Positions 6,460 through 51,069 of a DNA stretch of 61,105 nucleotides are shown here, piece after piece. The position numbers and the translations under genes are program-made. The DNA is from an uncultured Candidatus Saccharibacteria bacterium. Lineage in GTDB: Bacteria > Patescibacteriota > UBA1384 > VFKW01. A model generated the notes under the pieces. The model worked only from the letters and a program-made list of their open reading frames with translations. It had not been told where the DNA came from and ran no database searches. Each line of letters opens with the position of its first letter. Position 1 is the stretch's first letter. The stretch spans positions 1 through 61,105 of the forward strand of contig CAYZYR010000001.1 in the NCBI GenBank assembly GCA_964482785.1. The letters run 5' to 3'.

Positions 6460-6470
6460 ATCGGAGTGTC

Positions 6471-21787: not shown

Positions 21788-21812
21788 ATTACATAGAGGA
21801 GGATTGTGGCAT

Positions 21813-24497: not shown

Positions 24498-24604
24498 TTC
24501 CCCTCCAACATATAACATCTACTTTATTATAATATAGTTATGAAATATTTTAAATAGATATTATAAGTCTAGATTAATTACCTCCAATCTGATAGAATAT
24601 ATTC

Positions 24605-31500: not shown

Positions 31501-33406
31501 CCACTCCGCTCGCATTGGTTTTTACACTACCATTTATCGGGTTAGTTGAATCACTGTTTGAATAATCCAGTGTCAAATTGCCAACCGGCGTCCCCTCAAA
31601 AAACGTCGCCTTAGCCGAAAAAATTACCTCTTCTCCTGAATAGATAATTTTTTTATCTTGCGTTAATGTCAAACTGTATGCCGGTTTTGTATACTGTTGT
31701 ATGTCCAAATACTGACGCAAAACAATTTTGTCATCATTTTTAATGTATAGATAATACGATCCACCCGGCATCAAATCTTTAATCTCTAAATTACTCGTGA
31801 ATGTCCCATAATTATCTAGTGAAATTTCTTTTCGACCGATCATCGTCTCACTATTATCAGTCCAATTATATTGAATGACCTCTGCCTTCAATCTCCCGAT
31901 TTTCGAACCATCTCTCGATTTAATTACCCCCCAAAAATTAATCTTATCAGTCGGTAGGTATTGAACTTTGTCTGTCGTTAAGTAGGAGTAATATTTGCCA
32001 TCGCTAGTCGTTACCCCGGGCATCCAATGGCCAGATATTCCGTTCCAAACCATCGGTATCAAAAGGGGAATTTTCCCACCATAATTAACCTCGAAAAATT
32101 TAAAATCTTGTGCACGACTAAGGTATAAAGTATCTAAAGTATCACTCAAATCTTCAAAATCTTTGCCTTTTGTCTCAATCAGTGCTACTCCTTCGCTATT
32201 TGTCTGCCCCAACTCCGATCCCCCAAATAGACTAATCTTCGCTCCCGAAATTGATTTTTTACTTTTAATATCTTTAAGCCACACTAAACTTTTGTCTTTG
32301 GTCGAGCTTAAATAACTGGCAACATCAGTAGCTTGCAAAGTCGTTACATTATAATTGCCCTCGATTTTATTGACTAAAATATAATAACCTTCTCCAAGCA
32401 CATTCGGCAACTCTAAATACCGATGGCTACCTCGATTGTTAATTGTCAATTCATAACTTCCCGATTTCTTCTTAGCCATTCCTGCCAACACTGAAGTGTT
32501 AACTCGATCATCCGCCCAGGCATACTTGCCGACCAAGTCCATATACGTATCAATAAAAGTTTTTGCCTCGGAAAATTTATAAGCGTCGATAGTTACTTTT
32601 TGTCCGTCCTCAATATTTTCTGTATAAATATCTAGTACCGCTTTCTCCTGCAAGTTAGCCTCATTAAAATCTTGCACAAAAGTAATATCCTGTCTGACCG
32701 CTGTCGATCCAGAAGCTTTAGTTGCAAATCTTATCACATAATCTTTCCCTAGCTTCTCACCCGTTTCCTTCACTGTCAGATCCTTGCTAATGGTCACAAA
32801 GTAGGCTGTATCCGCCTTCATTTGAGATTGGGATGGTTTAATAATTAAAACCTCACCCTTCTCTTCAGTCGTAAAGCTAGCACTAGGCTCAAATTTAACC
32901 ATATCTTTGACTGATTCAAAACCAGACCTATTAAAAACAATCTCTATCCCCGTATTTACCGGCACTTCATTCGTCTTGTCTTTTGGCGTAGAACCAATCA
33001 CTTGAAAAGGCGCTTTTACCTGAAAAGCCCATTGGTACGTACGATCCAACCCTGATGTTTGAGGCAGAGAAAATCGATAAATATCATCTGATGCCATTTC
33101 CTCTTTCAAGCTGACTCTTATCGAGCTGTTCGGCAATTTATTCACCGTAAAATCTACTTCAGGCTCTATCAGCAAATTTTTCTTTACCCAGTTTTTATCA
33201 ATCGATCCCTTCGCTTTTATCACAAAACTGCTATTTTTTGCGATCCCAAATATATCCTGACTCTCAGGTTCTAAAGAAAAGTTGCTTGCCATCACTCGCT
33301 TGATCGGCGCCTCTTTATTGAGCATTAGCAAACTAACACCCGCCACGCTGGCCAAAACAACCACCGTCAGTATTGCTATATAAATCGATCTTACTTTTTT
33401 AGTCAT
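28574..33406 (-). CDS. alpha-2-macroglobulin-like / MG-domain giant surface protein
   Basis: 1610 aa with an N-terminal TM anchor and a long series of beta-sandwich-like modules. A helical-repeat region near the C-terminus (..LYGLAGL.., ..ALFVALGLTRLGD..) resembles a thioester-domain toroid. RBS is AGGGAGGG. Confidence 0.6.
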   Translation of the reverse strand: MTKKVRSIYIAILTVVVLASVAGVSLLMLNKEAPIKRVMASNFSLEPESQDIFGIAKNSSFVIKAKGSIDKNWVKKNLLIEPEVDFTVNKLPNSSIRVSLKEEMASDDIYRFSLPQTSGLDRTYQWAFQVKAPFQVIGSTPKDKTNEVPVNTGIEIVFNRSGFESVKDMVKFEPSASFTTEEKGEVLIIKPSQSQMKADTAYFVTISKDLTVKETGEKLGKDYVIRFATKASGSTAVRQDITFVQDFNEANLQEKAVLDIYTENIEDGQKVTIDAYKFSEAKTFIDTYMDLVGKYAWADDRVNTSVLAGMAKKKSGSYELTINNRGSHRYLELPNVLGEGYYILVNKIEGNYNVTTLQATDVASYLSSTKDKSLVWLKDIKSKKSISGAKISLFGGSELGQTNSEGVALIETKGKDFEDLSDTLDTLYLSRAQDFKFFEVNYGGKIPLLIPMVWNGISGHWMPGVTTSDGKYYSYLTTDKVQYLPTDKINFWGVIKSRDGSKIGRLKAEVIQYNWTDNSETMIGRKEISLDNYGTFTSNLEIKDLMPGGSYYLYIKNDDKIVLRQYLDIQQYTKPAYSLTLTQDKKIIYSGEEVIFSAKATFFEGTPVGNLTLDYSNSDSTNPINGSVKTNASGVATFKVKPIYNKGSNYPHYLRMSISSSASEEAEIVGRSGLQVLESTIFLKDQVKNGKLEIQANDNELNSDDHIGAPRANQQVNGTVFWIEDIKTKTGEYYDPITKAMKEQFAYSVIEHKIKDFTVKTDKEGKATYNLSDLEKEKRYKIEMSATDSQGRTVKDMNYYSTAGDSYVGESGLILTDESALSGERRYKIGDKTTLKLSGQGLELPPKDQFVFIRSDSTIKSFEIQDIPSLDYEYKSEDLPNVYINGVWFDGRTFKESNLVNLVFDKNERKLDMAISFDKKKYKPREKAKISLNVKDKNGKGKKTKLNIAVTDEALKTNEGENNILDDIYNIVRSRYYSRSSHKNLFDVFDGGGGGGGDEYRFKLIDVPAYKTIETDGAGKASFEFTLPDNITSFKTLVHGVTSDLEVGQSEAFIPVGKPVFVDATLNDTYLTGDQVNLRLRTFGEKSKEGTATYDVSVRSLNIEKQVVGDKNNQAMIDLGTLPAGEHEIRIKTQIGSYNDGIMRKIVVKDSNYQIEKQYYYPLSKDLSKIKASDEGRTALLISAEDKSMMYNILKGLYFDNGKRLDQIMARRYAADSLINDFGEQLLPYDESVASYTKNGGLAILPYSDNDLELSAKAMDLGSGDLNKTDLIRYFNKSLSDQKVDKTRRTMALYGLAGLDQPLLSRLQDMAKGELTTREALFVALGLTRLGDLETARDLYIKSVASEIVKKGIYYYVDKQENEEATIKITALAAVLATRLQRYEYPNLIRFAVDNMPREDLISIERALMAKYLGDISNNGVSFNYSVGNKSKKIELEKGKIYRLSLTEEEMGKLKFNSIKGKVGLISQVMESNRPAAEQLSNSLSVTRSYSVAGKNTNVFKDGDIVKITLTPKINGNDGNIYKIVDFLPSGLKPITGISTFSKEAQFNYPTTVEGQKTTFQIYNDSINKAVVYYARVVTKGKYKAEAPFIQSMQNFAILNMGGDTVVNIN

Positions 33407-37975: not shown

Positions 37976-38536
37976 CTAATGTTTCATCTTCTGCAAGGCC
38001 CAAGTCAACCTCACCTGCATCCCATGCGCCTCGTCCGGAATGCATTTTATACATTCCAAAATCTCGCTTTGTTTATAACCGAGCTGCTCCAGTGCTGCCA
38101 CCAAGTCAGCATCTTCACCGCTCTCCTCTGGAATAAGATTTTCATTATTGCCAGAAATCTTACTTTTTAATTCCACGATTATTTTAGCCGCCAATTTTTT
38201 ACCCACTCCCGAAATCGTACATAGAAAAGTCGAGTCCCCAGTCATTATCGATTTTTTAACCTTATCAATACTACCCGTCGCGATGATCGCCATTGCCATC
38301 TTCGGCCCCACCCCAGAAACCGTCAACAAAACCTCAAAAAATCTCATCTCTTCAACAGTCGAAAAACCATACAAATCATTCACTTCTTCCTTTATATGAT
38401 GATGAATATAAAATCTTGTCTCGCTTCCCGTTTTAAAATCCCCCCAACAATATATCTTGTAGCCAATATTATTTACATCCAAAATAACCCAGCTGTCTTG
38501 CTGATAATCCACTTTCCCTTTTAGCATTCCAATCAT
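37976..38536 (-). CDS. ruvA: Holliday junction DNA helicase subunit RuvA
   Basis: MIGMLKGKV... OB-fold N-terminus and HhH motifs (VSGVGPKMA, ISGVGKKLA). The ATG overlaps the ROK gene stop (ATGA). Confidence 0.9.
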   Translation of the reverse strand: MIGMLKGKVDYQQDSWVILDVNNIGYKIYCWGDFKTGSETRFYIHHHIKEEVNDLYGFSTVEEMRFFEVLLTVSGVGPKMAMAIIATGSIDKVKKSIMTGDSTFLCTISGVGKKLAAKIIVELKSKISGNNENLIPEESGEDADLVAALEQLGYKQSEILECIKCIPDEAHGMQVRLTWALQKMKH

Positions 38537-39375
38537 CGCTTTGCTCCTATCATGTCTAGTCCCACTCTGCCCGCTCCCAACAACCCCGCCGTTTGAGCAT
38601 TCTGACTTACTTTTATCGGTAGGTATTTGATTTTTTCATAAACCAAATCAAAACTTTTAACCCCACTTCCATCCAGCAAGATAAGCTCCGGGTCAAACAG
38701 CATAATTATATTTTTAATCGCTGCTTTCAAATAATCACCAATATAAGCAAATATTTCCCTCGAGTCCTTATTTCCTTCTCTCGCCTGTTCGGCGATCTCT
38801 TCCAGACTTACCCCAACTCTCGACTTTATCGCTGCTCCACCAATCAAAGATTCCAAACAACCCCGATGTCCCATAGCACAATCCGGCCCGTCCTCATCCA
38901 CAATCATATGACCGATCTCTCCTGCCAGCTTACTATGTCCTCTATAAATATGATTATCGCAAATAATCGCTCCCCCTACCCCTGTTCCCCAAATAATCAT
39001 CGCCACATTTTTTAACCCCTTCGCCTCTCCTATCCAATGCTCTCCGATTAAAGCCGCATTTGCGTCCCTTTCCAACCCAACCGGCAGGTGATAACGATCC
39101 TCTAAAATTTCTTTAATTTTCACATTATGCAAGTCTGGCAAATTAGGCGGATTCAATATCATCCCCGCCTCCAAGTCAATCGGTCCAGGCACCCCGATCC
39201 CGATCGCCAAAATCTCCGGCTTTATCATTTTATCGATCAGTTCAATCAATCTCGATAACGCTGCCCCGTCAGCACTCATTGTACGGATTTTCTCTTGCTC
39301 TAAAATGTTGCCTTTTCCATCAATTATTCCCGCTCTAATATGTGTCCCGCCTAAATCTACTCCCAATACTCTCAT
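38533..39375 (-). CDS. ROK-family sugar kinase (glucokinase-like)
   Basis: The N-terminal VLGVDLGGTHIR ATP-binding motif and the CAMGHRGCLES zinc motif are present. Confidence 0.85.
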   Translation of the reverse strand: MRVLGVDLGGTHIRAGIIDGKGNILEQEKIRTMSADGAALSRLIELIDKMIKPEILAIGIGVPGPIDLEAGMILNPPNLPDLHNVKIKEILEDRYHLPVGLERDANAALIGEHWIGEAKGLKNVAMIIWGTGVGGAIICDNHIYRGHSKLAGEIGHMIVDEDGPDCAMGHRGCLESLIGGAAIKSRVGVSLEEIAEQAREGNKDSREIFAYIGDYLKAAIKNIIMLFDPELILLDGSGVKSFDLVYEKIKYLPIKVSQNAQTAGLLGAGRVGLDMIGAKR

Positions 39376-40319
39376 ACTGCCCCCACCGCTTTTACCGGTT
39401 CCAAAGACGCCAGTAACTCATTTATCTTCAAAGTTCCAGCGCAAAGAACCCGATCTGCTGCCCCATAGTAAATAATTAATTCACCATCCTTCTCAATCAT
39501 TCCACACGAAAATGTCACATTATCCACCACTCCGTTTTTTTCATAATCCTCTTCCGGCTCCAAAAATGGCTCTTGACTTCTGGCGATTACCTTGCTCGGA
39601 TCGTTCAAATCCAAAAGCATCGCCCCCTGTCTGTAAACATGCTGTTCATCGACTCCATGATAAATAAGCAGCCATCCCTCAGGCGTTCGAATAGGAGAAG
39701 GCCCAGCTCCAATACGATCATTGTCCCACATCCCTTCTCTTGGACCGGCTATTACTTTATTATCATCCCATCGATACCACGTTTCGCCAGAACACATACA
39801 AATATTCGGATATTCTCGATGTAGTAAATGAATTTTATCATTAATTCTCTCCGGGAAAAGCGCTCCATCCTTGCTATCAAGCTCGTCTATCACCACTTGA
39901 TCTCGCTCGAAATTTTTAAAATCCTTTGTCCTTGCCAATGAAACCCGTACTCTCCACGGCCGGTCTGTTGCCCACACCGGATGAGGATGATTTGGTGGAT
40001 AAAGCGAAGCCGCCACATAAACCAGATGGTACTCTTCATCAAAATAACAAATCCTCGGGTCCTCAATTCCCATCACCTCAAATTCATTATATTGTTCCGG
40101 TTCTAATAATGGTTTGTCAAAACGTTCAAAATTATACCCGTCCTGACTAACAGCCAATCCTAACCTTGAAATCCCGTCCTGACCGATCGCCCTATAAATC
40201 AGCTTTATTTCGCCTCCAACCTTAATTGCTGCCGCATTCAAAACAGCCTTAGCTTCCCAAGCCAAATCTTTCCTTGGTTGCAAAATAGGGTTTTTTTGAT
40301 ATTTATTAAAAATTTTCAT
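39372..40319 (-). CDS. GH130-family glycoside phosphorylase/hydrolase (beta-mannoside-type)
   Basis: NPIL...W..KAVLNAAA, GIEDPRI and a five-bladed-propeller-like pattern. The ATG at 40319 follows AAGGAG. Confidence 0.75.
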   Translation of the reverse strand: MKIFNKYQKNPILQPRKDLAWEAKAVLNAAAIKVGGEIKLIYRAIGQDGISRLGLAVSQDGYNFERFDKPLLEPEQYNEFEVMGIEDPRICYFDEEYHLVYVAASLYPPNHPHPVWATDRPWRVRVSLARTKDFKNFERDQVVIDELDSKDGALFPERINDKIHLLHREYPNICMCSGETWYRWDDNKVIAGPREGMWDNDRIGAGPSPIRTPEGWLLIYHGVDEQHVYRQGAMLLDLNDPSKVIARSQEPFLEPEEDYEKNGVVDNVTFSCGMIEKDGELIIYYGAADRVLCAGTLKINELLASLEPVKAVGAV

Positions 40320-40411
40320 CTCCACTCCTTGCTTGATCATAATAATTCCTCAGTCTTGCGTCAAGCTGGAACTTAAAAACTAGAGGGAGTTCTCCTCCCT
40401 CTAGTTCAGGT

Positions 40412-42871
40412 CTAATTTACAAATTTTCCAATCGGCGCTGCTTTTGGCCTTTCCTCTTTTTTCTCTTCTTTCTTCGCCTCTCCCATTGTCACTTCAACAA
40501 TGTGCATGCCGCTAGCATATGGCGGGATTACATTCCCCTCGATCGCTTTTCCGTCCACCATTATCGACGCGATCTGCGTCATCGCGCCCTGCGGATTTTT
40601 TATCTTAATAAAATAAGTCGCTCCCCTAAAAGTCCTTTTGACTTCATATTCCTTCCATTCTTTTGGAATACAAGGACTGATCTCTAATCCATCCAATGTT
40701 GGTTTAACCCCGCATATATAATCAATACAGGCTCTCCAGAACCAACTCGCCGATCCTGTACACCATGTAAAAGAACCACGTCCAAATTCAGGATGAGGCG
40801 GCCCGTAAACAAACTCCGAATAAACAAAAGGCTCTACCCTATATTTTTCCGGATTTTTCCCTCTCGTCATAAATGACGTTCTTTTCCACATCTCATAGGC
40901 ACGCTCACCCCGCCCCAGCAGACATTCAGCCACTACTCCCCATGAAACCGGATGATTAAATATCGCTCCGTTTTCTTTCGTACCTGGCGTAAATTGCGAA
41001 ATAATACCAAACTGCTTAGAAGGTTTCATATATGGCGGCGTAAACATCGTCGGGCCATATTCTGTCATCAAATTATCCCATACCGAATCCATCGCCATTA
41101 CCGCTCGCTCACCCTCGGCTACCCCCGACATGATCGCCCATGTTTGCCCATTAATATCAATTTTTGCTTCTTTATTCTTATTACTTCCGATCGGCGTCTT
41201 GTCTTCGTGTGTCGCTCGAATATACCATTTCCCATCCCAAAACTCTTCGTTTAAGGTCTTCTTTACTTTATCATATGTTCCTCTATATCTCTCTGCCAGA
41301 TCTTTTTGTCCCACTTTATCCAATATCGGCATCAGCTCCTTTAAATTCCAGCATAGTTGATTTGCCACCATCGCCGATTCGCCCATGCCCTCACCATTCA
41401 ATGCATCATTCCAGTCCGCCGTTCTCCTATGTGGAATTCCTCGTCTTGAGCAATGTTGCAAAGTATACTCGATCGCCCGCACCAAGTGCTCTAAGACCGT
41501 CGCTTCGCCGTAGTCCTTATACGGAACATATTCGCCCAAAAATGAAACATCGCCTGTTTCCTTAATAAACAATATTACTGCCATCACCAGCCACATCGTA
41601 TCATCTGAATGATTTGTGATCGGCCCTCTTTCTGCCAGCGGATCCCAGTTGTGAACCGTGTGTCCCTCTGTAAACTGATAAGACAGTAAAGTTAAAACTC
41701 GCTTCTTTGACAATTTTATATCATTCGGCAGAGTTCCCAATATATGCTGACTCATATCGCGATAGCCATAAATCGCCCCGCCGCCCACATAATACGAATC
41801 CATCAAAGACCACTGCACTGTCATCCACGCCTGATATTTATTCCAAAAATTCACTGAAATATTAAAATCCGGATCCGGCGTTTTCACTGTTACCTTTTCC
41901 AGATAATTCTTCCACCAAGCCAGCAATTCTTCGTACGCTCTCGCCACTGCCCCATGGTCCTGATATTTCTTGACTAATTTTTTCTCAATTCCCAGATTAT
42001 CAAACGACCATTCCTGTTTTTTTAAATCATAATTTTCTCTCTTTTCTGCACCTAAAATAACATCAAATATAAACTCTTCTCCCGCCTCAAGAGTAATATT
42101 TTTTTGCAATGCCCCCACTGAATGATGTCCATCGCCCTGGCTTCCATGCAACTTCCCGTCTAGCACTGATTTTGGATGCCCTATTGATCCATACATACCC
42201 GTAAATTTTTCTTTATAACAATCAAATCCATCTACCGTGGTATTAATCGTCAAAAATGCCACCTTATCCCAAGGAACTCCTACTGCGTCCGGTCTATCCC
42301 AGCGCCTTTTTGTCCCATATATCACTCCATCTTCATAACTTAAATCATTAAATAAATCATTAAAACTCGCCTCCGCCAAATTAGCATGATGATTTCCCAA
42401 GCTCCATTCCACATAAACAAACAAAGACAAATTTCTTTTCTTTGTCGACTTGTTTTTTACTTTTGCCATCCAAAGTTCACACGTATCCTTTAGTGGCACA
42501 AAATAAGTTACATCTCCTTCTATTCCATTAGTAATGCAATTAACTTTCGTATATCCGATCCCATGCCTCGCTTCAAAAAACTCCGGCTTCACACAAACCG
42601 GCTGCCAAGTCAAACCCCAGATTTCACCCGTATCATTATCCCTCACATAGATATATCTGCCCGGCCGATCATATATCAACCCCTCGCCCGGCTGTTCTTT
42701 TAAAATTCGATTATAGCCGGCATCCCCAATCCAAGAATATCCGCCGCCTGTTTGCGAGATAAGTGCCATGTATTCACCATTAGTAATATGATTTACCCAT
42801 GGTTTAGGCGTATCTGGTCTAGTAATGATATATTCATCACCTAATTTTGAAAAATGACCATAATTTGGCAT
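40412..42871 (-). CDS. GH94-family glycoside phosphorylase (cellobiose/cellodextrin/chitobiose phosphorylase-like)
   Basis: The N-terminus YGHFSKLGDEYIITRPDTPKPWVNHI...GGGYSW...GRYIYVRD follows the GH94 N-terminal pattern. Length is 819 aa. RBS is TAGGAGG. Confidence 0.8.
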   Translation of the reverse strand: MPNYGHFSKLGDEYIITRPDTPKPWVNHITNGEYMALISQTGGGYSWIGDAGYNRILKEQPGEGLIYDRPGRYIYVRDNDTGEIWGLTWQPVCVKPEFFEARHGIGYTKVNCITNGIEGDVTYFVPLKDTCELWMAKVKNKSTKKRNLSLFVYVEWSLGNHHANLAEASFNDLFNDLSYEDGVIYGTKRRWDRPDAVGVPWDKVAFLTINTTVDGFDCYKEKFTGMYGSIGHPKSVLDGKLHGSQGDGHHSVGALQKNITLEAGEEFIFDVILGAEKRENYDLKKQEWSFDNLGIEKKLVKKYQDHGAVARAYEELLAWWKNYLEKVTVKTPDPDFNISVNFWNKYQAWMTVQWSLMDSYYVGGGAIYGYRDMSQHILGTLPNDIKLSKKRVLTLLSYQFTEGHTVHNWDPLAERGPITNHSDDTMWLVMAVILFIKETGDVSFLGEYVPYKDYGEATVLEHLVRAIEYTLQHCSRRGIPHRRTADWNDALNGEGMGESAMVANQLCWNLKELMPILDKVGQKDLAERYRGTYDKVKKTLNEEFWDGKWYIRATHEDKTPIGSNKNKEAKIDINGQTWAIMSGVAEGERAVMAMDSVWDNLMTEYGPTMFTPPYMKPSKQFGIISQFTPGTKENGAIFNHPVSWGVVAECLLGRGERAYEMWKRTSFMTRGKNPEKYRVEPFVYSEFVYGPPHPEFGRGSFTWCTGSASWFWRACIDYICGVKPTLDGLEISPCIPKEWKEYEVKRTFRGATYFIKIKNPQGAMTQIASIMVDGKAIEGNVIPPYASGMHIVEVTMGEAKKEEKKEERPKAAPIGKFVN

Positions 42872-42897
42872 TAATCCTCCTAACTCAAAGGTTTCGC

Positions 42898-43881
42898 TTA
42901 TTTAAATAGTTCATTATCTCTAGCCTCGAGTGCCAGCTCTAAGCTCGTTTTACCTTCTTCCAGTGAAACTCTTGGCCTAAATTCCGGACTCTCAATCTTT
43001 CGCACCAAATCTCTCATCACATCCTTTACTAATTCTCGATAATAAGCATCTTTGCTCACGCTTATCTTTTCTTCCTCCACAATAATCTCGCCCCATTCAT
43101 TCTCGTACTCCATCTTAAACGACATCGGGATCCAGCCATTCACCTCAATATAACCTTTTTCAAAAATAAACTTCCCCCAATTCCTCTCCAGATTCTCCGG
43201 TTTGTCAAAAGCGTGGTAAAAAGTAGCAATCACTCCTCCAGGATACTCAACCACAGCCAATGTTTCTCTCGGTGATGGTGTATAAGAGGCCGCTTTTGTC
43301 GGCACTTGTCCTACTACCGATGTAAAAATATCAAAAAAATGAACCCCATGCTCAACCAATAGTCCGCCACTAACATTTTTATCAAATAACCAATGCGAGT
43401 CAGGCAGATGCCCACTAGCGTAATTTTCAAATAATATTCTCTTTAGCTTCCCCAATTTTCCTGATTTCGCCACTTCCTTCACTCGCACATAAATATTAGT
43501 GTATCTCATCACGTATCCAATAGTCGCCACCACCCCGTATTCATCCGCTGTTTTAATTATGCTTTCAGCCTGTTCCTTAGAGATAGCTAAAGGCTTTTCC
43601 ACTAGAAACGCCTTTCCCGCTCTAGCACATTCAATCGCCATTTCTGCATGCAAATCAGGCGGAGTCATAATTGCTACAATATCAATTTCTGGATCGTTAA
43701 CAATCTCCTTATAATCAGTTGCAGCTTTTGGAATTGAAAATTCTTTAGCAAAATTTTCCACCGCTTCCTTGTTGCGCGCTGATACTGCCACCACCTCAAC
43801 TTCTTTCATTGACTGATAGTTTTCTACACAAAAACGACCAAACCCGCCGATCCCAATCGCGCCGATTTTATAAACTTTCAT
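42898..43881 (-). CDS. Gfo/Idh/MocA-family NAD(P)-dependent oxidoreductase
   Basis: The N-terminal Rossmann motif IGAIGIGGFGRF and the EKP motif (FLVEKPLA) are present. Confidence 0.85.
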   Translation of the reverse strand: MKVYKIGAIGIGGFGRFCVENYQSMKEVEVVAVSARNKEAVENFAKEFSIPKAATDYKEIVNDPEIDIVAIMTPPDLHAEMAIECARAGKAFLVEKPLAISKEQAESIIKTADEYGVVATIGYVMRYTNIYVRVKEVAKSGKLGKLKRILFENYASGHLPDSHWLFDKNVSGGLLVEHGVHFFDIFTSVVGQVPTKAASYTPSPRETLAVVEYPGGVIATFYHAFDKPENLERNWGKFIFEKGYIEVNGWIPMSFKMEYENEWGEIIVEEEKISVSKDAYYRELVKDVMRDLVRKIESPEFRPRVSLEEGKTSLELALEARDNELFK

Positions 43882-43914
43882 AAACCCTCCATATCATGTT
43901 TCAATCATAACATT

Positions 43915-44964
43915 TTATCGAGCTTGAACAAGTTTTTCCCGATCTTGTTCCAGTTTCACCATTACCAAATAGGCCAAAATATAACACACTATCGATTCTG
44001 CTCCCTGATTTAGATTTACTCCCCCATCAGTTAATCCATCAAATATCCCATCCGTTTTCTCGTCTATCAGAGATCTTTTTTGAATATTGTTCCCCGAAAA
44101 CCAGCCCCACCACAGTTCCGCCGCTTCAGCATATTCTTCTTCTTTTGTTAGTTTAAAAGCCAGAGCATGTGCCAATACCATATCTGCCGCATCAACCACC
44201 TGTTGGTCATAAATTGCCTTTTTTCGTCTTTTTAAATACCACCCGTTTTGTCCAATCGGCGCCGGGACGCCTTCAAATAAACATTTATTATGAAGGAATT
44301 TTAAACTCCTCAATCCTATTTTCTTGTAAACCTTATCTCCAGTCAATTTGTAAGCCAACATCATAGCATAAGGCATAATCGCATTTGAATAAGTCAAATG
44401 ATCCTCAAACCATTGCCACGACTCCGTTTCGTGCTCCATATAATCTTTTACCAAAGTATCTGCTATCTTCTTCACCTTTTTCTTATCACCCACAAAATAA
44501 TATCCCAGCATCGAGAAAGCTTTTGCTCTTTCATATTTAATAGATCTCAGATCAAATCTAAAATTATCCAAAATAACCAATGCTTTTTTGGATAATTCTT
44601 TCGAAATCTCCGGCTTGCTCGCCACATATCCCAAAGCCCATATTGTCCTACCTTGCGAATCTTGCGACCCGCACAAATCTATGAAGTTACCATTTGAGCT
44701 GGCAAAATTATGGAAAAATCCTGAAGGCATTTGTGCTCTTTCAATATATCGCAGGTATATTTTTGCCAAATCAAGCACTTTTGCATCACCATATATTTCA
44801 TAGTATTGAAAACAAGCGATCAACATTCTGGCATTATCATCAATAGAATAACCAAATTTTTTATCTGGTTCACTAAAACGACTATGCTGGTATAATCCCT
44901 TTGGCGTAGTTAATTTATATATGTGTTTGAGAGACGGCGGGGTCATCAATAAGGTTTTTGTCAT
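43915..44964 (-). CDS. hypothetical protein, possibly (alpha/alpha)6-barrel glycosidase-like
   Basis: 349-aa ORF overlapping the GT4 gene end by up to 50 nt. The helical-repeat composition (..DDNARMLIA.., ..GRTIWALGYV..) suggests the fold, but the assignment is tentative. Confidence 0.5.
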   Translation of the reverse strand: MTKTLLMTPPSLKHIYKLTTPKGLYQHSRFSEPDKKFGYSIDDNARMLIACFQYYEIYGDAKVLDLAKIYLRYIERAQMPSGFFHNFASSNGNFIDLCGSQDSQGRTIWALGYVASKPEISKELSKKALVILDNFRFDLRSIKYERAKAFSMLGYYFVGDKKKVKKIADTLVKDYMEHETESWQWFEDHLTYSNAIMPYAMMLAYKLTGDKVYKKIGLRSLKFLHNKCLFEGVPAPIGQNGWYLKRRKKAIYDQQVVDAADMVLAHALAFKLTKEEEYAEAAELWWGWFSGNNIQKRSLIDEKTDGIFDGLTDGGVNLNQGAESIVCYILAYLVMVKLEQDREKLVQAR

Positions 44965-46183
44965 TTGTTTTACCCAATTTGACTTCTTTGGTGATAAGCC
45001 AAAAAAGATTTAAATGTTTTAAAGCGACGTTTGACCAAATCATCGTTCTACCGTATGCGTATGCTTTTTTTTCAATTGCTCTTCTTTTTTCCGGATTATC
45101 TAATAATTCATTAATTCTTTTTGCAATTAAATCTGGATTTTTAAACGGCACCAGTACACCTCTTTCCTCGTCAAGCACTTCTGTCGCATATAAATATTCC
45201 GTCGAAACACATGGCCTGCCCGCTCCCAATGCATAAGACAGTGTTCCGGAAGTTATCTGTTGCGGGTCAAGATAAGGTGAAATATACAAATCCGATGCTC
45301 TTAGATACAATATTAACTCATCCAAGGACAAATATCTATTGATAAATTCCACATTATTTTGAATATTTTTATCTTTTATTAGTCTTTTAAGACTATCCCT
45401 GTATTTTTCCCCGTCCTTTTTCTTCAAGTTCGGGTGCGTCGCCCCGATAATCAAAAATTTCAAGTCCGGATATTTCTCTACCACTTTCGGCAAAGCTTCA
45501 ATCACATATTCAATCCCTTTACCCGGGTTTATCAATCCGAAAGTCGATAAAGTCGTCTTTCCCTGTAAACCCAGTTCATTCTTAAAATGAATTGTCGGCC
45601 CGTATGCAATATCAGGCACACCATGTGGAATAACTACTACTTTTTCTTTTGGAATGCCATAAACACTGGCCAAACGATCTGACGCCGCTCCAATCATTAC
45701 TACGATCGCTGTAGCGTATTCAGCAATTTCTTGCACGATTTTCTGTCTTTCCTCACCCGGCTCTTCCAAAACCGTATGAAACGTCACCACTATCGGTTTT
45801 TTAATCTGCTTCATAAAATCTACCACATATGACCCATGTCTACCGCCAAAAATCCCAAATTCATGTTGGATATGAATAATATCAGCGCTCGACTGGTTGA
45901 TGTAGTCTGCCGCTTTGGCGTAACTATCCAAATCGTCTTGCTTTACTCTATATTTTACTTCCCAAGGATATTCTCTCTCATCCGACTCACTCTCATCTAT
46001 CGCCATGATCTCAGCCAAACAAAGAGGATTAAGTACATTAATCGCTGTTGTCAAATCTTTCGTGAAAGTAGCAATACCGCATTCTCTCGGTATATAACTA
46101 CCTACGTAAATAACCCTCGCAACTTTTTCCTGTTGTGCCAATTTAATACCCAATGAATTTTCTGTCATGTTAAACCTTTTCAA
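44915..46183 (-). CDS. GT4-family (GT-B) glycosyltransferase
   Basis: The N-terminal YVGSYIPRECGIATFTKDL and the C-terminal E-x7-E-type region (..EERGVLVPFKNPD..) are present. Confidence 0.8.
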   Translation of the reverse strand: MKRFNMTENSLGIKLAQQEKVARVIYVGSYIPRECGIATFTKDLTTAINVLNPLCLAEIMAIDESESDEREYPWEVKYRVKQDDLDSYAKAADYINQSSADIIHIQHEFGIFGGRHGSYVVDFMKQIKKPIVVTFHTVLEEPGEERQKIVQEIAEYATAIVVMIGAASDRLASVYGIPKEKVVVIPHGVPDIAYGPTIHFKNELGLQGKTTLSTFGLINPGKGIEYVIEALPKVVEKYPDLKFLIIGATHPNLKKKDGEKYRDSLKRLIKDKNIQNNVEFINRYLSLDELILYLRASDLYISPYLDPQQITSGTLSYALGAGRPCVSTEYLYATEVLDEERGVLVPFKNPDLIAKRINELLDNPEKRRAIEKKAYAYGRTMIWSNVALKHLNLFWLITKEVKLGKTNDKNLIDDPAVSQTHI

Positions 46184-46322
46184 TTTAGGTAAAATATACT
46201 ATGATTTACCTGTTGTTTATGTATCACACAGTTTGAAGTATAAATAGATAATATTGAAAAAACTCCAAAAAGTCAATGTCTAATCAATCTATTATCAGGT
46301 TAAATACCTCCGCAGGAGCCAG

Positions 46323-47339
46323 ATGACCAAATATGATTACAAATCCCTAAAAAATATCGATCAAAAGCTCGAAAATATCATCACTAAGCTCAACCTTGAG
46401 GACACTCCACCGGTGGTTGATTTTCTCATCTCAAAAAGCAAATTCTATTTTGCCACACCTGTCTACAAAAATCAGAAAGTGATTTTCAAAGCTCGTATCG
46501 CCGACCATCGTGTCTTAAAAAAATCCGGCAAACAATTTCAAATCGAGCGAAGATTTATCCATAATTTACAGAAATATTATTCTCGCGAGCCTCTCGTCAG
46601 CCGCATCCCACGCTGTCTCGCCTCCCAACACAAAGATTTCGAATGGATGATTTCCGAATTCATCGACGGTCAAACCATCGGTCAAAATATGCTCTCTTTT
46701 GAAAATCCGGATAAACAGACCATCAACGAAATCATCAATTTACTTTTAGATATTCAATCTTTTCCCATGACCGAATTTATCCAAAAACATAAATGGACAT
46801 CGGCTATGCGCCGGAGTAATTATGAAAGATATGAGCGCTCTTATTATAAATTTACTAAAAATTATACTTCTATTCTCTCCAAATTTTTATCCGCTAAAGA
46901 CCTCAAAAAAGCCAAAGAAATCCTTCTTTCTCACAGCGATCTGATAGACGATTCTTGCACTATTTTGGCCCATGGCGATTTTCAACCAACTAATATTTTT
47001 ATAAGCCACGATCAGGCTGTCGCCATCGACTGGGAAAGCCTCTGTCTTGGCAACTCCGCTATCGATATTGCCACTCTTTGGCAGAGAATGACATCAGATC
47101 CTACCCTGCGCCAATATTTCCTTCAGGAATCCTCAAAAAGTTCTGTTCAAAAAGACAACTTCCCACAATTATTCCAGACAAACATTCTCATTACTCTTAT
47201 GGGTGAATTCGCCATTTGGCAAAGCGAACTCGAAAACGACAATCCGGACACTCAAAAACTTGCCCGGCAATCACTGGAATTATGTTACAATAACTACATG
47301 CAGGCTTTAAATGGTGAAAAGATAGAAAATTATGAATAA
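46323..47339 (+). CDS. APH/choline-kinase-fold phosphotransferase (kinase K1)
   Basis: A beta3 Lys context VIFKARI, catalytic loop HGDFQPTNIF and metal-binding IDWES. RBS is AGGAG. Confidence 0.8.
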   Translation: MTKYDYKSLKNIDQKLENIITKLNLEDTPPVVDFLISKSKFYFATPVYKNQKVIFKARIADHRVLKKSGKQFQIERRFIHNLQKYYSREPLVSRIPRCLASQHKDFEWMISEFIDGQTIGQNMLSFENPDKQTINEIINLLLDIQSFPMTEFIQKHKWTSAMRRSNYERYERSYYKFTKNYTSILSKFLSAKDLKKAKEILLSHSDLIDDSCTILAHGDFQPTNIFISHDQAVAIDWESLCLGNSAIDIATLWQRMTSDPTLRQYFLQESSKSSVQKDNFPQLFQTNILITLMGEFAIWQSELENDNPDTQKLARQSLELCYNNYMQALNGEKIENYE

Positions 47340-48060
47340 AGACTTTAAAGAAAAAAGAAACTTCATTGATCCTCTAAGCGACCACAAAAAAGGAATTGTC
47401 TTCTCCAGGAAAATGCCGGAGAAGTCAATTTTTGACCAACCTTTTCTTTCCCAAGAAAGAGAAAAATCAAAAAACCAGCCCACAGTCTGTTTTGATCTCG
47501 ACGGCACTATCCGCGGCTGGGATGGCATAAAGTTTGAAGGTTTTCTAAGAAAAAACTTAAAACCACTCCTTAAACATCTCAAACAAAATGGTTATCGATT
47601 AGTCATTTGGAGCGCCACCACCAAAGATTCCCTCCAGCAAACTATTAACAAATATCCGGAATTGGAAGAATATTTTGACACTTTTATTGCCGCCGAACAT
47701 TTTTGTTTCAAATTTTTATCCGAAGATCAAAAAAATTTAGCCAGGAAAGAAAATCCTGATTATTACCAGTGGCTCTATGATCTGACAGATGAGAAAGGTT
47801 CAAAAATTTCAAACCCCTTATTTAGACCGCCAAAAAATATAAAATTTTTAAAATATAAAATTCTAATTGACGACAATCCCAATATCGTTAAAGAAGCCAA
47901 TCACTTTAAATATGATTATATTAAATTATTTACTTATGCTTACAAAAATCCGGACATAAAAAAAGACTTCCCCAAAAAGCTTGCAAGAGAATTGGAAGAA
48001 AATTTCAAACTAAACCTAGTTAGATTGATAGAGACTTATATGGAAAAACAGCATGCCTAA
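47332..48060 (+). CDS. FCP1/SCP (NIF)-like HAD phosphatase (P1)
   Basis: DxDxT motif CFDLDGTIR, motif II LVIWSATT, and ..KILIDDNP.. The ATG overlaps the K1 stop (ATGAATAA). Confidence 0.75.
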   Translation: MNKDFKEKRNFIDPLSDHKKGIVFSRKMPEKSIFDQPFLSQEREKSKNQPTVCFDLDGTIRGWDGIKFEGFLRKNLKPLLKHLKQNGYRLVIWSATTKDSLQQTINKYPELEEYFDTFIAAEHFCFKFLSEDQKNLARKENPDYYQWLYDLTDEKGSKISNPLFRPPKNIKFLKYKILIDDNPNIVKEANHFKYDYIKLFTYAYKNPDIKKDFPKKLARELEENFKLNLVRLIETYMEKQHA

Positions 48061-49075
48061 ATACGACTACAAACCCCTAAAAGACATCGAGAAAAAAGTT
48101 AATAATGTTATGGACAAGCTCCATATCCAACCTTATAATTCCGTCGCCGAAGCCATCCAAGGCAAACAAAACTTCTTCGTTACCGATACCGCCTATCACA
48201 ATTCCCGGGTAATGTTTAAAGCCCGGATCGCCGACCATCGCGTCCTCCGTCAAAAAGGCAAAAATTTTAAAAATGAAAGGCGTTTTTTGCGTTCTCTCCA
48301 AAAAGTCGATCCCGAAAACCCCATTACTACCTGTATGCCCAGATACCTAAAATCGCAGATGACTTCCTGTGAATGGCTCATGTGTGAATTCATCGACAAA
48401 AAAACTATCGGTTCCAGTAATATTTCCTATGACAGTCCCAACACCGAAGAAATCCTAAAAATCGTTAAACTTCTCCGCAACATTCAGATTTTTCCCATTC
48501 AAAAATTCTGTCGTACCCATCACTGGACCAAATCCTTTCAATGGAACGACTTCAATTTTTACCATGAACTCTTCCATAAAGTCCTTCGTACTAAGCGTCC
48601 TACCCTGCAAAAAATCCTCACCAAAGAGGAAATAGATTTAGCTGACGGAATTATTTTAGGCAACCAACCCCTTCTTGACGGCGCTTGTACTCTCTTAAGT
48701 CACGGCGACTTTCATCCCGCCAATATCATCATCAATGGCAACGCCATCGCTATCGACTGGGAAACATTGCACATCGACAATGCCGCCTGGGATCTCGCCA
48801 CTCTTTGGATGCGAATGGTCGGCCACCAAGAAGAAAGACGTCTCTTGTTACAGGAATTTGCCAAAAAGACCCAACAAAAAGAATATTTCCCCGATCTCTT
48901 CCGCTTAAATATTCTCTGTCGTATGTTTGAGGAAATCGCTATGATCTGGCACCCTCTTTCCTACCGAGACGATCTCCCTGACTGGAAACTAAAACTTTAT
49001 TCTAAAAATTTAGAAATATCAAAAGAAAATTTTAAAACAGCCATCAAAGGAGGTAGCTTCAATGACTACGATTAA
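48053..49075 (+). CDS. APH/choline-kinase-fold phosphotransferase (kinase K2, paralog of K1)
   Basis: VMFKARI, HGDFHPANII and IDWET. It is colinear with K1 from MxKYDYKxLKxI onward. The ATG overlaps the P1 stop (ATGCCTAA). Confidence 0.8.
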   Translation: MPKYDYKPLKDIEKKVNNVMDKLHIQPYNSVAEAIQGKQNFFVTDTAYHNSRVMFKARIADHRVLRQKGKNFKNERRFLRSLQKVDPENPITTCMPRYLKSQMTSCEWLMCEFIDKKTIGSSNISYDSPNTEEILKIVKLLRNIQIFPIQKFCRTHHWTKSFQWNDFNFYHELFHKVLRTKRPTLQKILTKEEIDLADGIILGNQPLLDGACTLLSHGDFHPANIIINGNAIAIDWETLHIDNAAWDLATLWMRMVGHQEERRLLLQEFAKKTQQKEYFPDLFRLNILCRMFEEIAMIWHPLSYRDDLPDWKLKLYSKNLEISKENFKTAIKGGSFNDYD

Positions 49076-49817
49076 TTTTAAAAGTGAACAACAATTTGTC
49101 GATCCTTTAAACGATGATTTAACAAGAGTCAAATATTCCACCAAATTCGTCCGCGGTACCATTTTTAATCAAGAATTCGCTCTGACTGAACGCGCCAAAG
49201 CCGAAAAACAAAAGACGATCGTTTTTGATTTTGACGGCACTCTTCGCGGTTGGGACAATAAAAATCAAGAAGGATTTCTTAGGCATTATCTAAAAAAAGT
49301 CTTAGCCGAACTCAAAAATAAAGGCTATCGTCTGGTCATTTGGTCTGCCTCAAACAAAGACTCGATTCAGCAAACTTTAAATAAATATCCCGACTTTGAA
49401 GAGTATTTTGATTTAATAATCTCCGCCGAGAATTATAGCTATCCTTTTGTCTCAATCGAGGATAGAGAATTCCTCCGCACCGACAATCCCGCTTATTTCA
49501 AAGTAATGCTTGAAGTCAAAGACAACCCCATCAAAGCCAGCAACGGCATGAGCATCTATCGTCCCCCTAAAAACATAAATTTTCTAAATTACAGCATAAT
49601 CGTTGAAGACGATCCCGTCGCCATGGAAGAAGCAAGAGATTTTGGTTTCAGTTGTATCAAGGTTTTTTCCTATACTTATGAAAACCCCGACGTTTCCGAT
49701 GTGCCCGAAGAGGTTGTTGAACAAGCCAATGAAGATTTCAAAAACAATATGGTCGACCGCATCGTCGCCATAGTCGAAAATAAACCACTCGTCGAACCCC
49801 AGATCTACATCGCCTAA
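49062..49817 (+). CDS. FCP1/SCP (NIF)-like HAD phosphatase (P2, paralog of P1)
   Basis: VFDFDGTLR, LVIWSASN and ..IIVEDDP.. It overlaps K2 by 14 nt. Confidence 0.75.
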   Translation: MTTINFKSEQQFVDPLNDDLTRVKYSTKFVRGTIFNQEFALTERAKAEKQKTIVFDFDGTLRGWDNKNQEGFLRHYLKKVLAELKNKGYRLVIWSASNKDSIQQTLNKYPDFEEYFDLIISAENYSYPFVSIEDREFLRTDNPAYFKVMLEVKDNPIKASNGMSIYRPPKNINFLNYSIIVEDDPVAMEEARDFGFSCIKVFSYTYENPDVSDVPEEVVEQANEDFKNNMVDRIVAIVENKPLVEPQIYIA

Positions 49818-50160
49818 TTATCTCACTCATTCTATCTGTTATTCTATATAAAATCTAAAATAATAACTTTTATAATCAGTCAACCACAGAAATTAAATCA
49901 TACTCCGGTCAAATGATTGGCCCAACCGCTAAGACAATTTTAACCTATAATTTATTCACAAAATGATTTAATTTTGAGTTGCATTATAACTTGCTAGGAG
50001 TAGAGATCATAGAAGGGTGGGGAGCGCGTACTAGCATCCCCATCCTCCTACATAAAAATAACCAAACATTTTTATTAAAATGAATTCCATGTGTCCTTGA
50101 ACCCAAAAAAACTGCAAGATCTCTTTTGTAAAAAATCTCTAATTCATTAATAAAAATATT

Positions 50161-50637
50161 TTACAAAAACCTGCTCATCGTCGTCGATGTAATCGCAATT
50201 GCCAGAGCATCCGCCGCATCGTCCGGCTTCGGAATCTCTTTCAGACCTAAAATCCCTTGAACCATCTTCTGGATTTGTCTCTTTTCCGCCCTCCCGTACC
50301 CTGTCAAGGCCTGTTTAACCTGTAAAGGTGTAAATTCTGTTATTTTAACACCCGCTTTTTTTGCCGCCAGAACTACCACCCCTCGTGCTTCTCCCACCGT
50401 CATTACCGTCGTCACATTTCTAGCAAAAAATAATTTTTCAACTGCCACCACATCCGGTTTGTATTTTTCAATAATTGAGGTAATACTATCGAAAATCAAA
50501 ACCAGTCTCTCAGTGATCTCAGTATGAGCCGGTGTACTAATACAACCATAATCAACCAGTTCCACTTTTCTTCCTTCATAATTAATAATCCCATAGCCTA
50601 ATCTACCTGTTCCCGGATCAATTCCTAAAATTCTCAC
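50161..50637 (-). CDS. ruvC: crossover junction endodeoxyribonuclease RuvC
   Basis: MRILGIDPGTGRLGYGII..., with acidic catalytic residues in the conserved positions. 158 aa. Confidence 0.92.
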   Translation of the reverse strand: MRILGIDPGTGRLGYGIINYEGRKVELVDYGCISTPAHTEITERLVLIFDSITSIIEKYKPDVVAVEKLFFARNVTTVMTVGEARGVVVLAAKKAGVKITEFTPLQVKQALTGYGRAEKRQIQKMVQGILGLKEIPKPDDAADALAIAITSTTMSRFL

Positions 50638-50685: not shown

Positions 50686-51060
50686 CTATTTTTTAAAATA
50701 ATCAAATTCCGGCCTTCGATCTACTATCCAAAAAGCCTTTTTAATATCATCTATATAAAAAATATCTACAATTTTATATTTCCCCGAAGTCGTATTTTTT
50801 TCCAAGTTATGAGTTACTTCTAAAATATGCACCAATCCCCAATAAATCCACTTGCCCTCAACATTTTCAACTAAAAAAGTTCTTACTGGAGGAGTATGAA
50901 AAATCCTCACGCTAGGTTTATCACAGAACTCAAAAACACGATCATTAAAATCTTCTGCGCGAAAAGGATTTTTTTCATGTTCTAATAAAATTAGTTCCTT
51001 TGGAAACCCTTGCTCTCTAGTAATTTGTAAAGTGTCATTAATCTCTATGTAGCTTCCCAT
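50686..51060 (-). CDS. conserved hypothetical protein in the yebC-ruvC operon
   Basis: The ORF lies directly downstream of yebC. ATG is at 51060; the track start is GTG 51069. No recognised motif. Confidence 0.55.
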   Translation of the reverse strand: MGSYIEINDTLQITREQGFPKELILLEHEKNPFRAEDFNDRVFEFCDKPSVRIFHTPPVRTFLVENVEGKWIYWGLVHILEVTHNLEKNTTSGKYKIVDIFYIDDIKKAFWIVDRRPEFDYFKK

Positions 51061-51069
51061 ATCTCCCAC

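Follow-up and report, generated by a model that had tools for sequence, protein, structure and literature searches.

Overlapping genes for a predicted APH-fold kinase and a NIF-like HAD phosphatase form a duplicated two-enzyme module in a bacterial sugar island

Introduction

Units in which a kinase and a phosphatase are locked together are rare, and those that have been described, PNKP, HprK/P, PFK-2/FBPase-2 and ACAD10, each revealed distinctive biology. HprK/P, AceK and PFK-2/FBPase-2, all of which lock a kinase and a phosphatase together, control carbohydrate metabolism; PNKP works on two positions of one substrate; and the protein-fructosamine-6-phosphatase MDP-1 and the APH-clan kinase FN3K act in turn on glycated proteins. 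ACAD10 unites a 1-O-alkylglycerol kinase and an alkyl-acetyl-glycerophosphate phosphatase, which handle two intermediates of one ether-lipid pathway (PMC13596139), and a bacterial sugar example is provided by MupP and AmgK, a HAD phosphatase and an APH-fold sugar kinase that serve one pathway (PMC5371407). Here, we analyzed four genes in the order K1-P1-K2-P2, two for kinases (K) and two for phosphatases (P), in a 61,105-nucleotide (nt) stretch of DNA (hereafter the window) from an uncultured Candidatus Saccharibacteria bacterium (GenBank assembly GCA_964482785.1, contig CAYZYR010000001.1, positions 1 to 61,105 of the forward strand).

An earlier note, made from the letters of the window alone, had singled out these genes and offered two explanations for them, namely sugar-1-kinases with proofreading phosphatases, or a protein phospho-switch. 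No description of such a K-P module was found in the searchable literature. The carbohydrate metabolism and host dependence of the branch of the candidate phyla radiation (CPR) that carries it are poorly understood, and the substrate of K-P would define what the conserved GT4/GH94 island around it makes or consumes.

Results

Two overlapping kinase-phosphatase gene pairs

The four genes are listed with their surroundings in Table 1, in which, as throughout the text, coordinates are positions in the whole window. The plus-strand open reading frames (ORFs) alternating between two families that the earlier note had described were recovered intact at the same coordinates, and its three overlapping junctions were read from the sequence as 8, 8 and 14 nt. 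A Shine-Dalgarno sequence, AAGGAGG, lies upstream of P2, and AGGAG lies 6 nt upstream of the K1 ATG. The two pairs are full-length, colinear paralogues, as the note had also claimed, with 40% identity between K1 and K2 (E 3e-84) and 44% between P1 and P2 (E 3e-74), values that place the paralogy well above chance. Compared with the sister strain (locus L004), the ratio of nonsynonymous to synonymous substitution rates (dN/dS) is 0.12 for P1, 0.06 for K2 and 0.04 for P2, next to 0.11 for RuvC; these low ratios indicate that P1, K2 and P2 are functional genes under purifying selection.

K and P are paired in all related loci that extend far enough

P follows K wherever the locus sequence continues, that is, in the window (twice), L001, L002, L003, L004 (twice), L006/7, L008, L009, L013, L014 and L019. 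The K and P genes overlap by 8 or 14 nt in the window, L001, L002, L003, L006, L008, L009 and L014. The full K-P-K-P order is present in the window and in the sister strain L004, and L019, from a clearly different species, starts with K1-type, P1-type and K2-type genes, of which P1 and K2 are 55% and 63% identical to those of the window. In L014 (280-2443), the order is K-P-P', with a second phosphatase gene directly after the first; upstream of its K lies a plus-strand ORF fragment in place of the usual divergent GT4 gene.

Searching the P-family matches (129 sequences) with the K profile uncovered a 623-amino-acid (aa) fused protein, P0073, with a P domain at residues 54-271 and a K domain at 345-617 (K-profile E 3.6e-28). 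These domains are 27% identical to P2 and 24% to K2, respectively. Its gene (locus L017) occupies the K-P slot of the window, between a group formed by recG, ruvA and the GH94, GFO, six-hairpin and GT4 genes and a group formed by ruvC, yebC, an MBL-fold gene and comEC. L016 has distant relatives of both P and K, encoded convergently beside ruvC; its APH kinase is 25% identical to K2 (E 2e-6), and the kinase gene overlaps ruvC by 4 nt. A further distant P homologue, P0028 in L015 (3-1918; GCA_023265565.1), is the divergent neighbour of a Hanks-type Ser/Thr kinase (Pkinase E 7e-34).

The same two domains thus occur in three gene arrangements, including a fusion in the opposite order, which is strong evidence, of a comparative genomic kind, that K and P function as a unit. 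Gene order and overlaps indicate that K-P is an obligate two-enzyme unit, co-translated from overlapping genes, and K and P probably associate physically. The earlier note had pointed to linkage of this pairing with GH94 and GH130 phosphorylases. Both the pairing and its linkage to GH94 turned out to be conserved in relatives, whereas linkage to GH130 holds in L001, L002 and L006, whose contigs are long enough, and is lacking in the fusion lineage L017.

K is an APH-fold kinase outside characterised subfamilies

K1 and K2 match PF01636 (APH) at 54.3 and 55.7 bits against a cutoff of 23.2, which bears out the assignment to this family in the earlier note. Invariant in 11 aligned sequences are Lys56 (in FKAR), Glu75, H217-G-D219...N224 and D235-W-E, which correspond to the beta3 Lys, the alphaC Glu, the HGDxxxxN loop and the metal-binding Asp of IDWE. 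All are intact in both K1 and K2, and, judged by these motifs, K should be catalytically competent. The N-terminus of K, M-x-K-Y-x-Y-K-x-L, is likewise invariant.

The AlphaFold model of K2 (mean predicted local distance difference test score, pLDDT, 84) has a bilobal kinase fold with a helical substrate lobe. Foldseek comparison of this model with the PDB gave 70 matches at E <= 1e-3, and the best 50 of the 70 are all APH-clan kinases, with TM-scores of 0.45-0.58 and identities of at most 16%. APH(9), APH(2''), the amicoumacin kinase AmiN and corramycin phosphotransferase lead, followed by NahK, MTR kinase and choline kinase. Among these 50, 49 are small-molecule kinases; the exception, TvaE at rank 48, is leader-peptide-bound. 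NahK stands at rank 11 (13% identity, TM about 0.52-0.55), below the antibiotic kinases. NCBIfam gave only far-sub-threshold matches for K (thiamine kinase, APH(3'), LxmK, SrkA), the PDB gave no significant match by single sequence or by the K family profile, and no match to the NahK, AmgK or maltokinase subfamilies was found in NCBIfam or Pfam, nor NahK or Mak in the profile search of the PDB. The model thus places K among small-molecule-type kinases, with no close known relative. The NahK/maltokinase type of kinase that the earlier note had suggested found no specific support, with NahK only at Foldseek rank 11 and no subfamily profile matched.

P is a capless HAD phosphatase with borderline NIF membership

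The P alignment shows HAD motifs I-IV as D56-x-D58-G/E-T, W-S95-A, K170 and D-D183-x-P, with D56, D58, T60, S95, K170 and D183 invariant or nearly so; most P relatives read DLDET... (I/V)DDDP. These motifs suggest that P is catalytically competent. The conserved N-terminal extension noticed earlier, which includes an F-x-DP-L motif, is real, with F6, D14, P15, F35, F39 and E43 invariant.

In profile searches, Pfam NIF (PF03031; cutoff 21.8) was matched by P1 at 21.8 bits and by P2 at 22.2 bits, and by the relatives P0021 and P0026 at 116 and 26 bits. PF05152 DUF705 (baculovirus 38K; cutoff 20.4) was matched by P2 at 32.7 bits (E 7e-8), P1 being unlisted; TIGR01684 gave 42.5 and 21.8 bits, both below its cutoff of 134; and HAD-IIIC (TIGR01681, the MDP-1/FkbH group; cutoff 35.75) gave 36.9 bits for P2 and 27.0 for P1. 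The AlphaFold model of P2 (pLDDT 81) is a capless HAD with a predicted Rossmann-like core and a well-packed N-terminal helix. It has a two-strand hairpin (residues 62-73) after motif I, where FCP/SCP enzymes have a beta-sheet insertion, and, between motifs II and III, a helical insertion that is specific to the family. Its best PDB matches by Foldseek are MDP-1 (1u7p, E 1.6e-5, the best of all), a Listeria orphan, the T4 PNKP phosphatase (5uj0, E 1.4e-4), AcMNPV 38K, CTDNEP1 (rank 10), TIM50 (rank 14), HisB-N and KdsC; SCP1 and FCP1 have no entry in the top 50. Among viral protein models, giant-virus NIF proteins, 38K and phage PNKPs were matched. Searches of the PDB by single sequence and by the P family profile gave no significant match.

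Of the FCP1/NIF-type phosphatase claimed in the earlier note, a HAD enzyme with NIF-like motifs therefore stands, whereas NIF membership does not stand firmly: scores lie at the cutoff, and MDP-1 and T4 PNKP are structurally closer. "NIF-like" is an apt term for the motifs of P, and family membership is borderline by profile score. Neither K nor P was placed in an ordinary, characterised subfamily by the profile searches.

K and P are rare and confined to a narrow group of CPR bacteria

Among 5.8 billion protein clusters, word-indexed searches returned 10 K homologues with K1 as the query and 8 P homologues, and the K family profile returned 14 kinases, all full-length and all of the K family. 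The P profile, run exhaustively with HMMER against 1.84 billion representatives, gave 4 full-length clusters and 131 matches at E <= 1e-3 in all. Two loci, one of them named Candidatus Berkelbacteria, were found by scanning one genome per species across 185,579 species, and a scan of JGI metagenomes likewise gave two loci; these genome and metagenome scans were pattern-based and blind to distant relatives, which the exhaustive HMMER run covers. Both families, about 14 kinases and 10 phosphatases among the 5.8 billion clusters, are confined to Berkelbacteria-like CPR bacteria. Viral contigs scanned with the P alignment contained no relative, and a mobile or viral origin of K-P was dropped on this ground.

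P-type domains with an IFDxxF..ER..S N-terminal element often lie within giant proteins of 2,000-6,156 aa (P0021-P0147). P0021 has eight tandem copies of the P domain, and P0023 combines a P domain with PPDK_N and PEP-utiliser (dikinase) domains. This wider P domain family, many of whose 131 representatives lie inside proteins of 2,000-6,000 residues, is essentially unstudied.

The two copies differ in age and K1 has been exchanged between strains

K2 is 59-66% identical to the kinases of L001 and L009, and P0002, L004_K1, P0019 and L019 form a K1-P1 clade separate from K2-P2. By these relationships, K2-P2 is the ancestral copy, orthologous to the single pair of relatives, and K1-P1 is an older paralogous duplicate that is also present in another species. 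Identities to L002 are 90% for YebC, 73% for GT4, 73% for GH94, 51% for K and 50% for P.

Between the window and L004, K1 is only 44% identical at the protein level, compared with 95% for P1, 97% for K2 and 98% for P2. The edges of the divergent segment (Table 1) are sharp and fall within the first ~15 and the last ~17 codons, which are conserved, and the catalytic motifs are kept in both K1 alleles. This pattern points to allele replacement by recombination at conserved gene ends and not to local mutation. A diversity-generating retroelement was ruled out as the source of the variation, which amounts to ~45% divergence over ~900 bp, involves all base types, unlike adenine-targeted mutagenesis, and includes indels. 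K1 may be exposed to diversifying selection; alternatively, different K1 alleles may feed different substrates to a tolerant P1.

K-P lies in a soluble sugar-enzyme island between ruvA and ruvC

The module forms one end of an 11.6-kb island that splits ruvA from ruvC (37976-50637), genes that are usually neighbours; the same split is present in L001, L002, L006 and L017. The divergent GT4 gene adjoins K in L001-L004, L006-L009, L013 and L017, and the six-hairpin gene is kept in all longer related loci. Since the fusion lineage L017 lacks both GH130 and ROK, the conserved core, as defined by comparison of loci, is GT4, six-hairpin, GFO, GH94, K and P. PDB matches of GT4 include MshA (3c4q) and sucrose-phosphate synthase (6kih), enzymes with phosphorylated acceptors, which is suggestive. 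In the region between GT4 and K, the minus strand reads TTGACT (-35), 17 nt and then TATTAT, a sigma-70-like promoter for GT4. A shared operator in this region was considered and rejected, as this conserved promoter and the ribosome-binding site of GT4 were all that the alignment showed, and no palindrome was obvious.

No hydrophobic segment or signal peptide was found in any island protein, and no transporter in the island, indicating that the island pathway is cytoplasmic and soluble. PADLOC gave no meaningful match to K1, P1, K2, P2, GT4 or the six-hairpin protein, its single weak hit (Cas1, E 0.0025, to P2) being evidently spurious, and the idea of a defence system was dropped. The phage families matched in PHROGs were weak hits and uninformative.

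The 343-nt spacer from P2 to the end of ruvC (49818-50160) contains a G+C-rich inverted repeat, GGGTGGGGA...TCCCCATCC, at ~50016-50045, to which Rfam gave no match; its identity to L004 (83-90%) is below that of the flanking genes. No terminator 3' of P2 passed a simple plus-strand scan. Between ruvC and yebC lies an ORF of 127 aa (50686-51069) with no family match.

Table 1 Module, junctions and island genes in the window, with the observations on which each entry is based
Feature	Position	Strand	Basis
K1, APH-fold kinase, divergent paralogue, 338 aa	46323-47339	+	ORF; PF01636 E 2e-14; clusters with L004_K1 and P0002
K1 body, replaced allele in sister strain	46367-47283 (L004 915-1830)	+	~55% nt identity vs ~95% in flanks
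P1, capless HAD phosphatase, partner of K1, 242 aa	47332-48060	+	ORF; HAD motifs I-IV; NIF 21.8 bits; clade with P0019
K2, APH-fold kinase, orthologue of the single kinase in relatives, 340 aa	48053-49075	+	PF01636 E 8e-15
P2, capless HAD phosphatase, orthologue of the single phosphatase in relatives, 251 aa	49062-49817	+	DUF705, HAD-IIIC and NIF profiles
K1/P1 overlap ATGAATAA, 8 nt	47332-47339	+	Read from sequence
P1/K2 overlap ATGCCTAA, 8 nt	48053-48060	+	Read from sequence
K2/P2 overlap ATGACTACGATTAA, 14 nt, after AAGGAGG	49062-49075	+	Read from sequence
Intergenic region shared by GT4 and K1	46184-46322	.	Conserved AGTCAAT block in nearly all related loci
GT4 glycosyltransferase, divergent from K	44915-46183	-	Pfam Glycos_transf_1 / Glyco_transf_4
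Six-hairpin (alpha/alpha)6 glycosidase-like, overlaps GT4	43915-44964	-	Weak GH127/GH76/GH88; PDB 7tem E 1e-7
GFO/IDH/MocA sugar oxidoreductase	42898-43881	-	Pfam; best NCBIfam IolG-like and UDP-GlcNAc 3-dehydrogenase-like, both below cutoff
GH94 disaccharide phosphorylase	40412-42871	-	Pfam E 4e-116; PDB chitobiose/cellobiose phosphorylases E about 1e-143
GH130 beta-1,2-mannoside phosphorylase	39372-40340	-	Pfam; NCBIfam beta-1,2-mannobiose phosphorylase E 2e-85; PDB E 2e-70
ROK-family sugar kinase	38533-39375	-	Pfam ROK E 4e-56; ROK glucokinase subfamily
ruvA, island left border	37976-38536	-	Pfam; same border in L001 and L017
ruvC, island right border, convergent with P2	50161-50637	-	Pfam RuvC E 8e-55; same border in all related loci

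Other features of the window

At ~4222-4806 on the minus strand, a group I intron of ~500 nt (Rfam RF00028, 85 bits, 4272-4566) interrupts a tRNA gene, whose 5' half (TCCGCGATAGCTCAATGGTAGAGCGGGTGGCTGT...) lies near 4806-4770 and whose 3' half (...GGTTCGAGTCCTACTCGCGGAGCA) lies near 4262-4222. The intron contains an ORF of 70 aa (4529-4741) with a CxxC...H motif, HNH endonuclease-like by eye. ARAGORN made no call of the intron-split gene at this position. A bacterial alpha-2-macroglobulin-like protein of 1,610 aa (A2M, MG2, bMG3, bMG10) is encoded at 28574-33406 on the minus strand, a big investment for a small genome. The gene of a NAGPA-type phosphodiester glycosidase (21804-22604, plus strand) neighbours one (22632-24518, minus strand) for a protein of 628 aa whose C-terminal domain is a type IV secretion pilin domain. 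Three genes in a row at 4930-7838 encode a pyrimidine 5'-nucleotidase of the eukaryote type (UMPH-1 E 2e-38), a LOG-like protein of SLOG cluster 4 and a beta-CASP RNase.

Discussion

The function of K-P is most likely an ordinary, if novel, metabolic step. We tentatively lean towards a reading in which the substrates of K and P are successive intermediates of the glycoside pathway of the island. K would phosphorylate a hydroxyl of a sugar or aglycone acceptor, the phospho-intermediate would then be processed, most plausibly by glycosylation through GT4, and P would strip the phosphate from the product, while a second K-P unit would open the pathway to another substrate. Such a phosphorylate-modify-dephosphorylate logic, sequential rather than futile opposition, is the same as that by which sucrose-phosphate or GlcNAc-inositol-phosphate is synthesized and then acted on by a phosphatase; ACAD10 of ether-lipid metabolism is a further precedent. 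The kinase and phosphatase had been called opposing in the earlier note; this was an assumption, and sequential action in one pathway fits equally. Which class of substrate is used, in what order the steps follow and that K and P form a physical complex are our inferences.

The sequential pathway is supported by the nearest structures of K, which are small-molecule kinases, by the obligate association of K with P, by the constant linkage to GT4 and the six-hairpin gene, by the soluble nature of the island and by purifying selection on P1, K2 and P2. ACAD10 (PMC13596139) and MupP/AmgK (PMC5371407) are precedents for a HAD phosphatase and an APH-fold kinase that handle different intermediates of one pathway, and the GT4 matches to enzymes with phosphorylated acceptors are suggestive. 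Several observations weigh against it. For the most part, the relatives of P (NIF, baculovirus 38K, MDP-1, PNKP) have proteins or nucleic acids as substrates rather than free sugar phosphates, and K matches no profile of any characterised subfamily, its Foldseek TM-scores of 0.45-0.58 coming with identities of at most 16%. K-P and GT4 belong to separate, divergent transcription units. By the identities to L002, K and P evolve faster than the sugar enzymes of the island, and replacement of a K1 allele between strains is unusual for a core metabolic step. Moreover, all known loci come from one narrow clade, and the linkage could partly be inherited synteny.

The relatives of P lend themselves to the main alternative reading, which we consider unlikely, namely a reversible protein phospho-switch. 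K would phosphorylate a target protein, possibly an island enzyme, which P would dephosphorylate. Whether separate or fused, the two enzymes would resemble HprK/P or AceK, and metabolites would set the balance between glycoside synthesis and breakdown. Protein or macromolecule phosphatases are indeed prominent among these relatives: NIF is reached at the cutoff by P1 and P2 and with E 1e-33 by P0021, P2 matches DUF705 (baculovirus 38K), and its Foldseek matches include MDP-1, CTDNEP1, TIM50 and UBLCP1. The rapid evolution of K and P and the K1 allele swap suit proteins that recognise proteins, and the weak matches of K include the same-clan peptide or protein kinases SalKC/LanKC, LxmK and SrkA. 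The neighbour of P0028 in L015 is a Hanks-type Ser/Thr kinase, although this adjacency is one case and concerns a distant homologue. The phospho-switch of the earlier note thus draws some support from P relatives; but the structural top 50 of K2 contains no folded-protein kinase, neither a candidate target nor a sensory domain was identified in our analysis, and constitutive 1:1 co-translation of opposing enzymes would cycle ATP unless it is regulated. Less probable again is a bifunctional regulatory switch of a hitherto unknown kind, formed by an APH-fold kinase and a NIF-like HAD as co-translated subunits or as one fusion, that toggles the bacterium between making and consuming a glycoside by reversible phosphorylation of an island protein or glycan, and for which swapping of K1-P1 would reflect diversifying selection by an interaction partner, host or phage. 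A fructosamine-kinase/MDP-1 analogy was dropped, as K has no match to the fructosamine-kinase family.

The remaining explanations assign other substrates or other positions to the same two activities. That K1 and K2 phosphorylate the anomeric position of sugars as sugar-1-kinases of the NahK, AmgK or maltokinase type do, feeding or complementing GH94 and GH130 while P1 and P2 proofread wrong sugar phosphates, seems improbable to us. NahK and MTR kinase are structural neighbours at ranks 11-20, the island phosphorylases handle alpha-Glc/GlcNAc-1-P and alpha-Man-1-P, and two kinases correspond neatly to two phosphorylases in the window; this 2:2 match is not general, however, as most relatives have one K-P with both phosphorylases and the fusion lineage has GH94 only. 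K has no specific similarity to NahK, AmgK or Mak and antibiotic kinases rank above them, the phosphorylases already yield sugar-1-phosphates, with the ROK kinase there for the released free sugar, and a proofreading phosphatase co-translated with or fused to each kinase is without precedent. We rate lower still a relocation of phosphate that bypasses a mutase, from sugar-6-P through sugar-1,6-bisP to sugar-1-P or in reverse, following the logic of HldE/GmhB in heptose synthesis and of MupP/AmgK in MurNAc recycling and replacing phosphogluco- or phosphomannomutase in a reduced genome. Such pathway logic is established for MupP/AmgK (PMC5371407), CPR genomes are reduced and the island makes sugar-1-phosphates; the structurally neighbouring capless HADs HisB-N, KdsC/YrbI and KDN-9-P phosphatase act on small sugar phosphates, and P1 and P2 weakly match phrog_1238 of PHROGs, which is annotated as heptose-pathway. 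Relocation would, however, cost one ATP per sugar, cancelling the energy gain of phosphorolysis, and it leaves the tie to GT4 and the six-hairpin gene and the K1 allele swap unexplained. Modification of a xenobiotic or antibiotic, with K inactivating a toxic glycoside or aminoglycoside-like compound of its own or of a neighbour and P reversing this, as in the prodrug schemes of AmiN/AmiO and StrA/StrK, is very unlikely. The top structures of K2 are (self-)resistance kinases, namely APH(9), APH(2''), AmiN, corramycin phosphotransferase and Mph, but this ranking is biased by the strong enrichment of the PDB in such kinases; strain-specific replacement of K1 suits an arms race, but P has no signal peptide and the reactivating phosphatases of known schemes act extracellularly, the island has neither biosynthetic core genes nor an exporter, and PADLOC and PHROGs yielded one spurious match and weak, uninformative ones, respectively. 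Finally, it is hardly credible that K-P heals nucleic-acid ends as a PNKP-like 5'-kinase/3'-phosphatase tied to ruvC, ruvA and recG. The best structural matches of P2 do include the T4 Pnkp phosphatase domain and phage PNKPs, ruvC adjoins K-P in every locus and the L016 kinase gene even overlaps it by 4 nt, but the ruv genes merely border an 11.6-kb sugar island, and K has an APH fold with the helical substrate lobe typical of small-molecule kinases, whereas all characterised polynucleotide kinases are, to our knowledge, P-loop enzymes.

Compared with described systems, the fused protein P0073 has the domain order of ACAD10, a HAD phosphatase followed by an APH-fold kinase in one polypeptide. 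The HAD domain of ACAD10, however, is of the capped HAD-IA type, whereas P is capless and NIF/IIIC-like; there is no ACAD domain here, the setting is bacterial and of sugar rather than lipid metabolism, and no specific sequence relationship to ACAD10/11 was detected (ACAD11, 8v3v, reached only E 0.95 when the K profile was run against the PDB). PNKP (T4 Pnkp, bacterial Pnkp1) likewise combines a kinase with a capless HAD phosphatase, and its phosphatase domain is a structural neighbour of P2, but its kinase is a P-loop enzyme in place of an APH-fold one, and the loci analyzed here give no sign of a nucleic-acid substrate. With the NIF/FCP1-SCP phosphatases and baculovirus 38K, P has in common the DxDx(T) motif, the (I/V)DDxP motif IV and the capless architecture, with structural matches to CTDNEP1, TIM50, UBLCP1 and 38K; it differs in that scores are marginal and MDP-1 and PNKP are structurally ahead, and in being bacterial and having its own N-terminal extension, a helical insertion between motifs II and III and an APH-fold kinase as partner. 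MDP-1 (HAD-IIIC) is the best structural match of P2, which scores above the HAD-IIIC cutoff, but K has no match to Pfam Fructosamin_kin, FN3K is absent from the K2 Foldseek top 50, and MDP-1 and FN3K are neither linked nor fused with each other, unlike K-P.

MupP/AmgK and HldE/GmhB also bring a HAD phosphatase and a sugar kinase to different positions of one sugar. In neither case do the two genes show obligate pairing, overlap or fusion, MupP belongs to the capped HAD-IA enzymes, and K and P are not members of those families at the sequence level. HprK/P, AceK and PFK-2/FBPase-2 differ from K-P in their folds, which are P-loop in the first case, a kinase-like fold of its own with a shared active site in AceK, and a histidine phosphatase in the last, and no regulatory target was identified for K-P. 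The association of K with P is well backed by genomics, through gene overlaps, a fusion in the same slot, a re-oriented pair and duplication of the unit in two species, and both proteins are small and predicted to be soluble, which suits them to direct expression and assay. With an APH-fold K, a P that is a marginal NIF/IIIC-type HAD and no ACAD domain, the K-P unit is therefore a member of none of the known bifunctional kinase/phosphatase modules, PNKP, ACAD10, HprK/P and PFK-2/FBPase-2, but is like them in kind.

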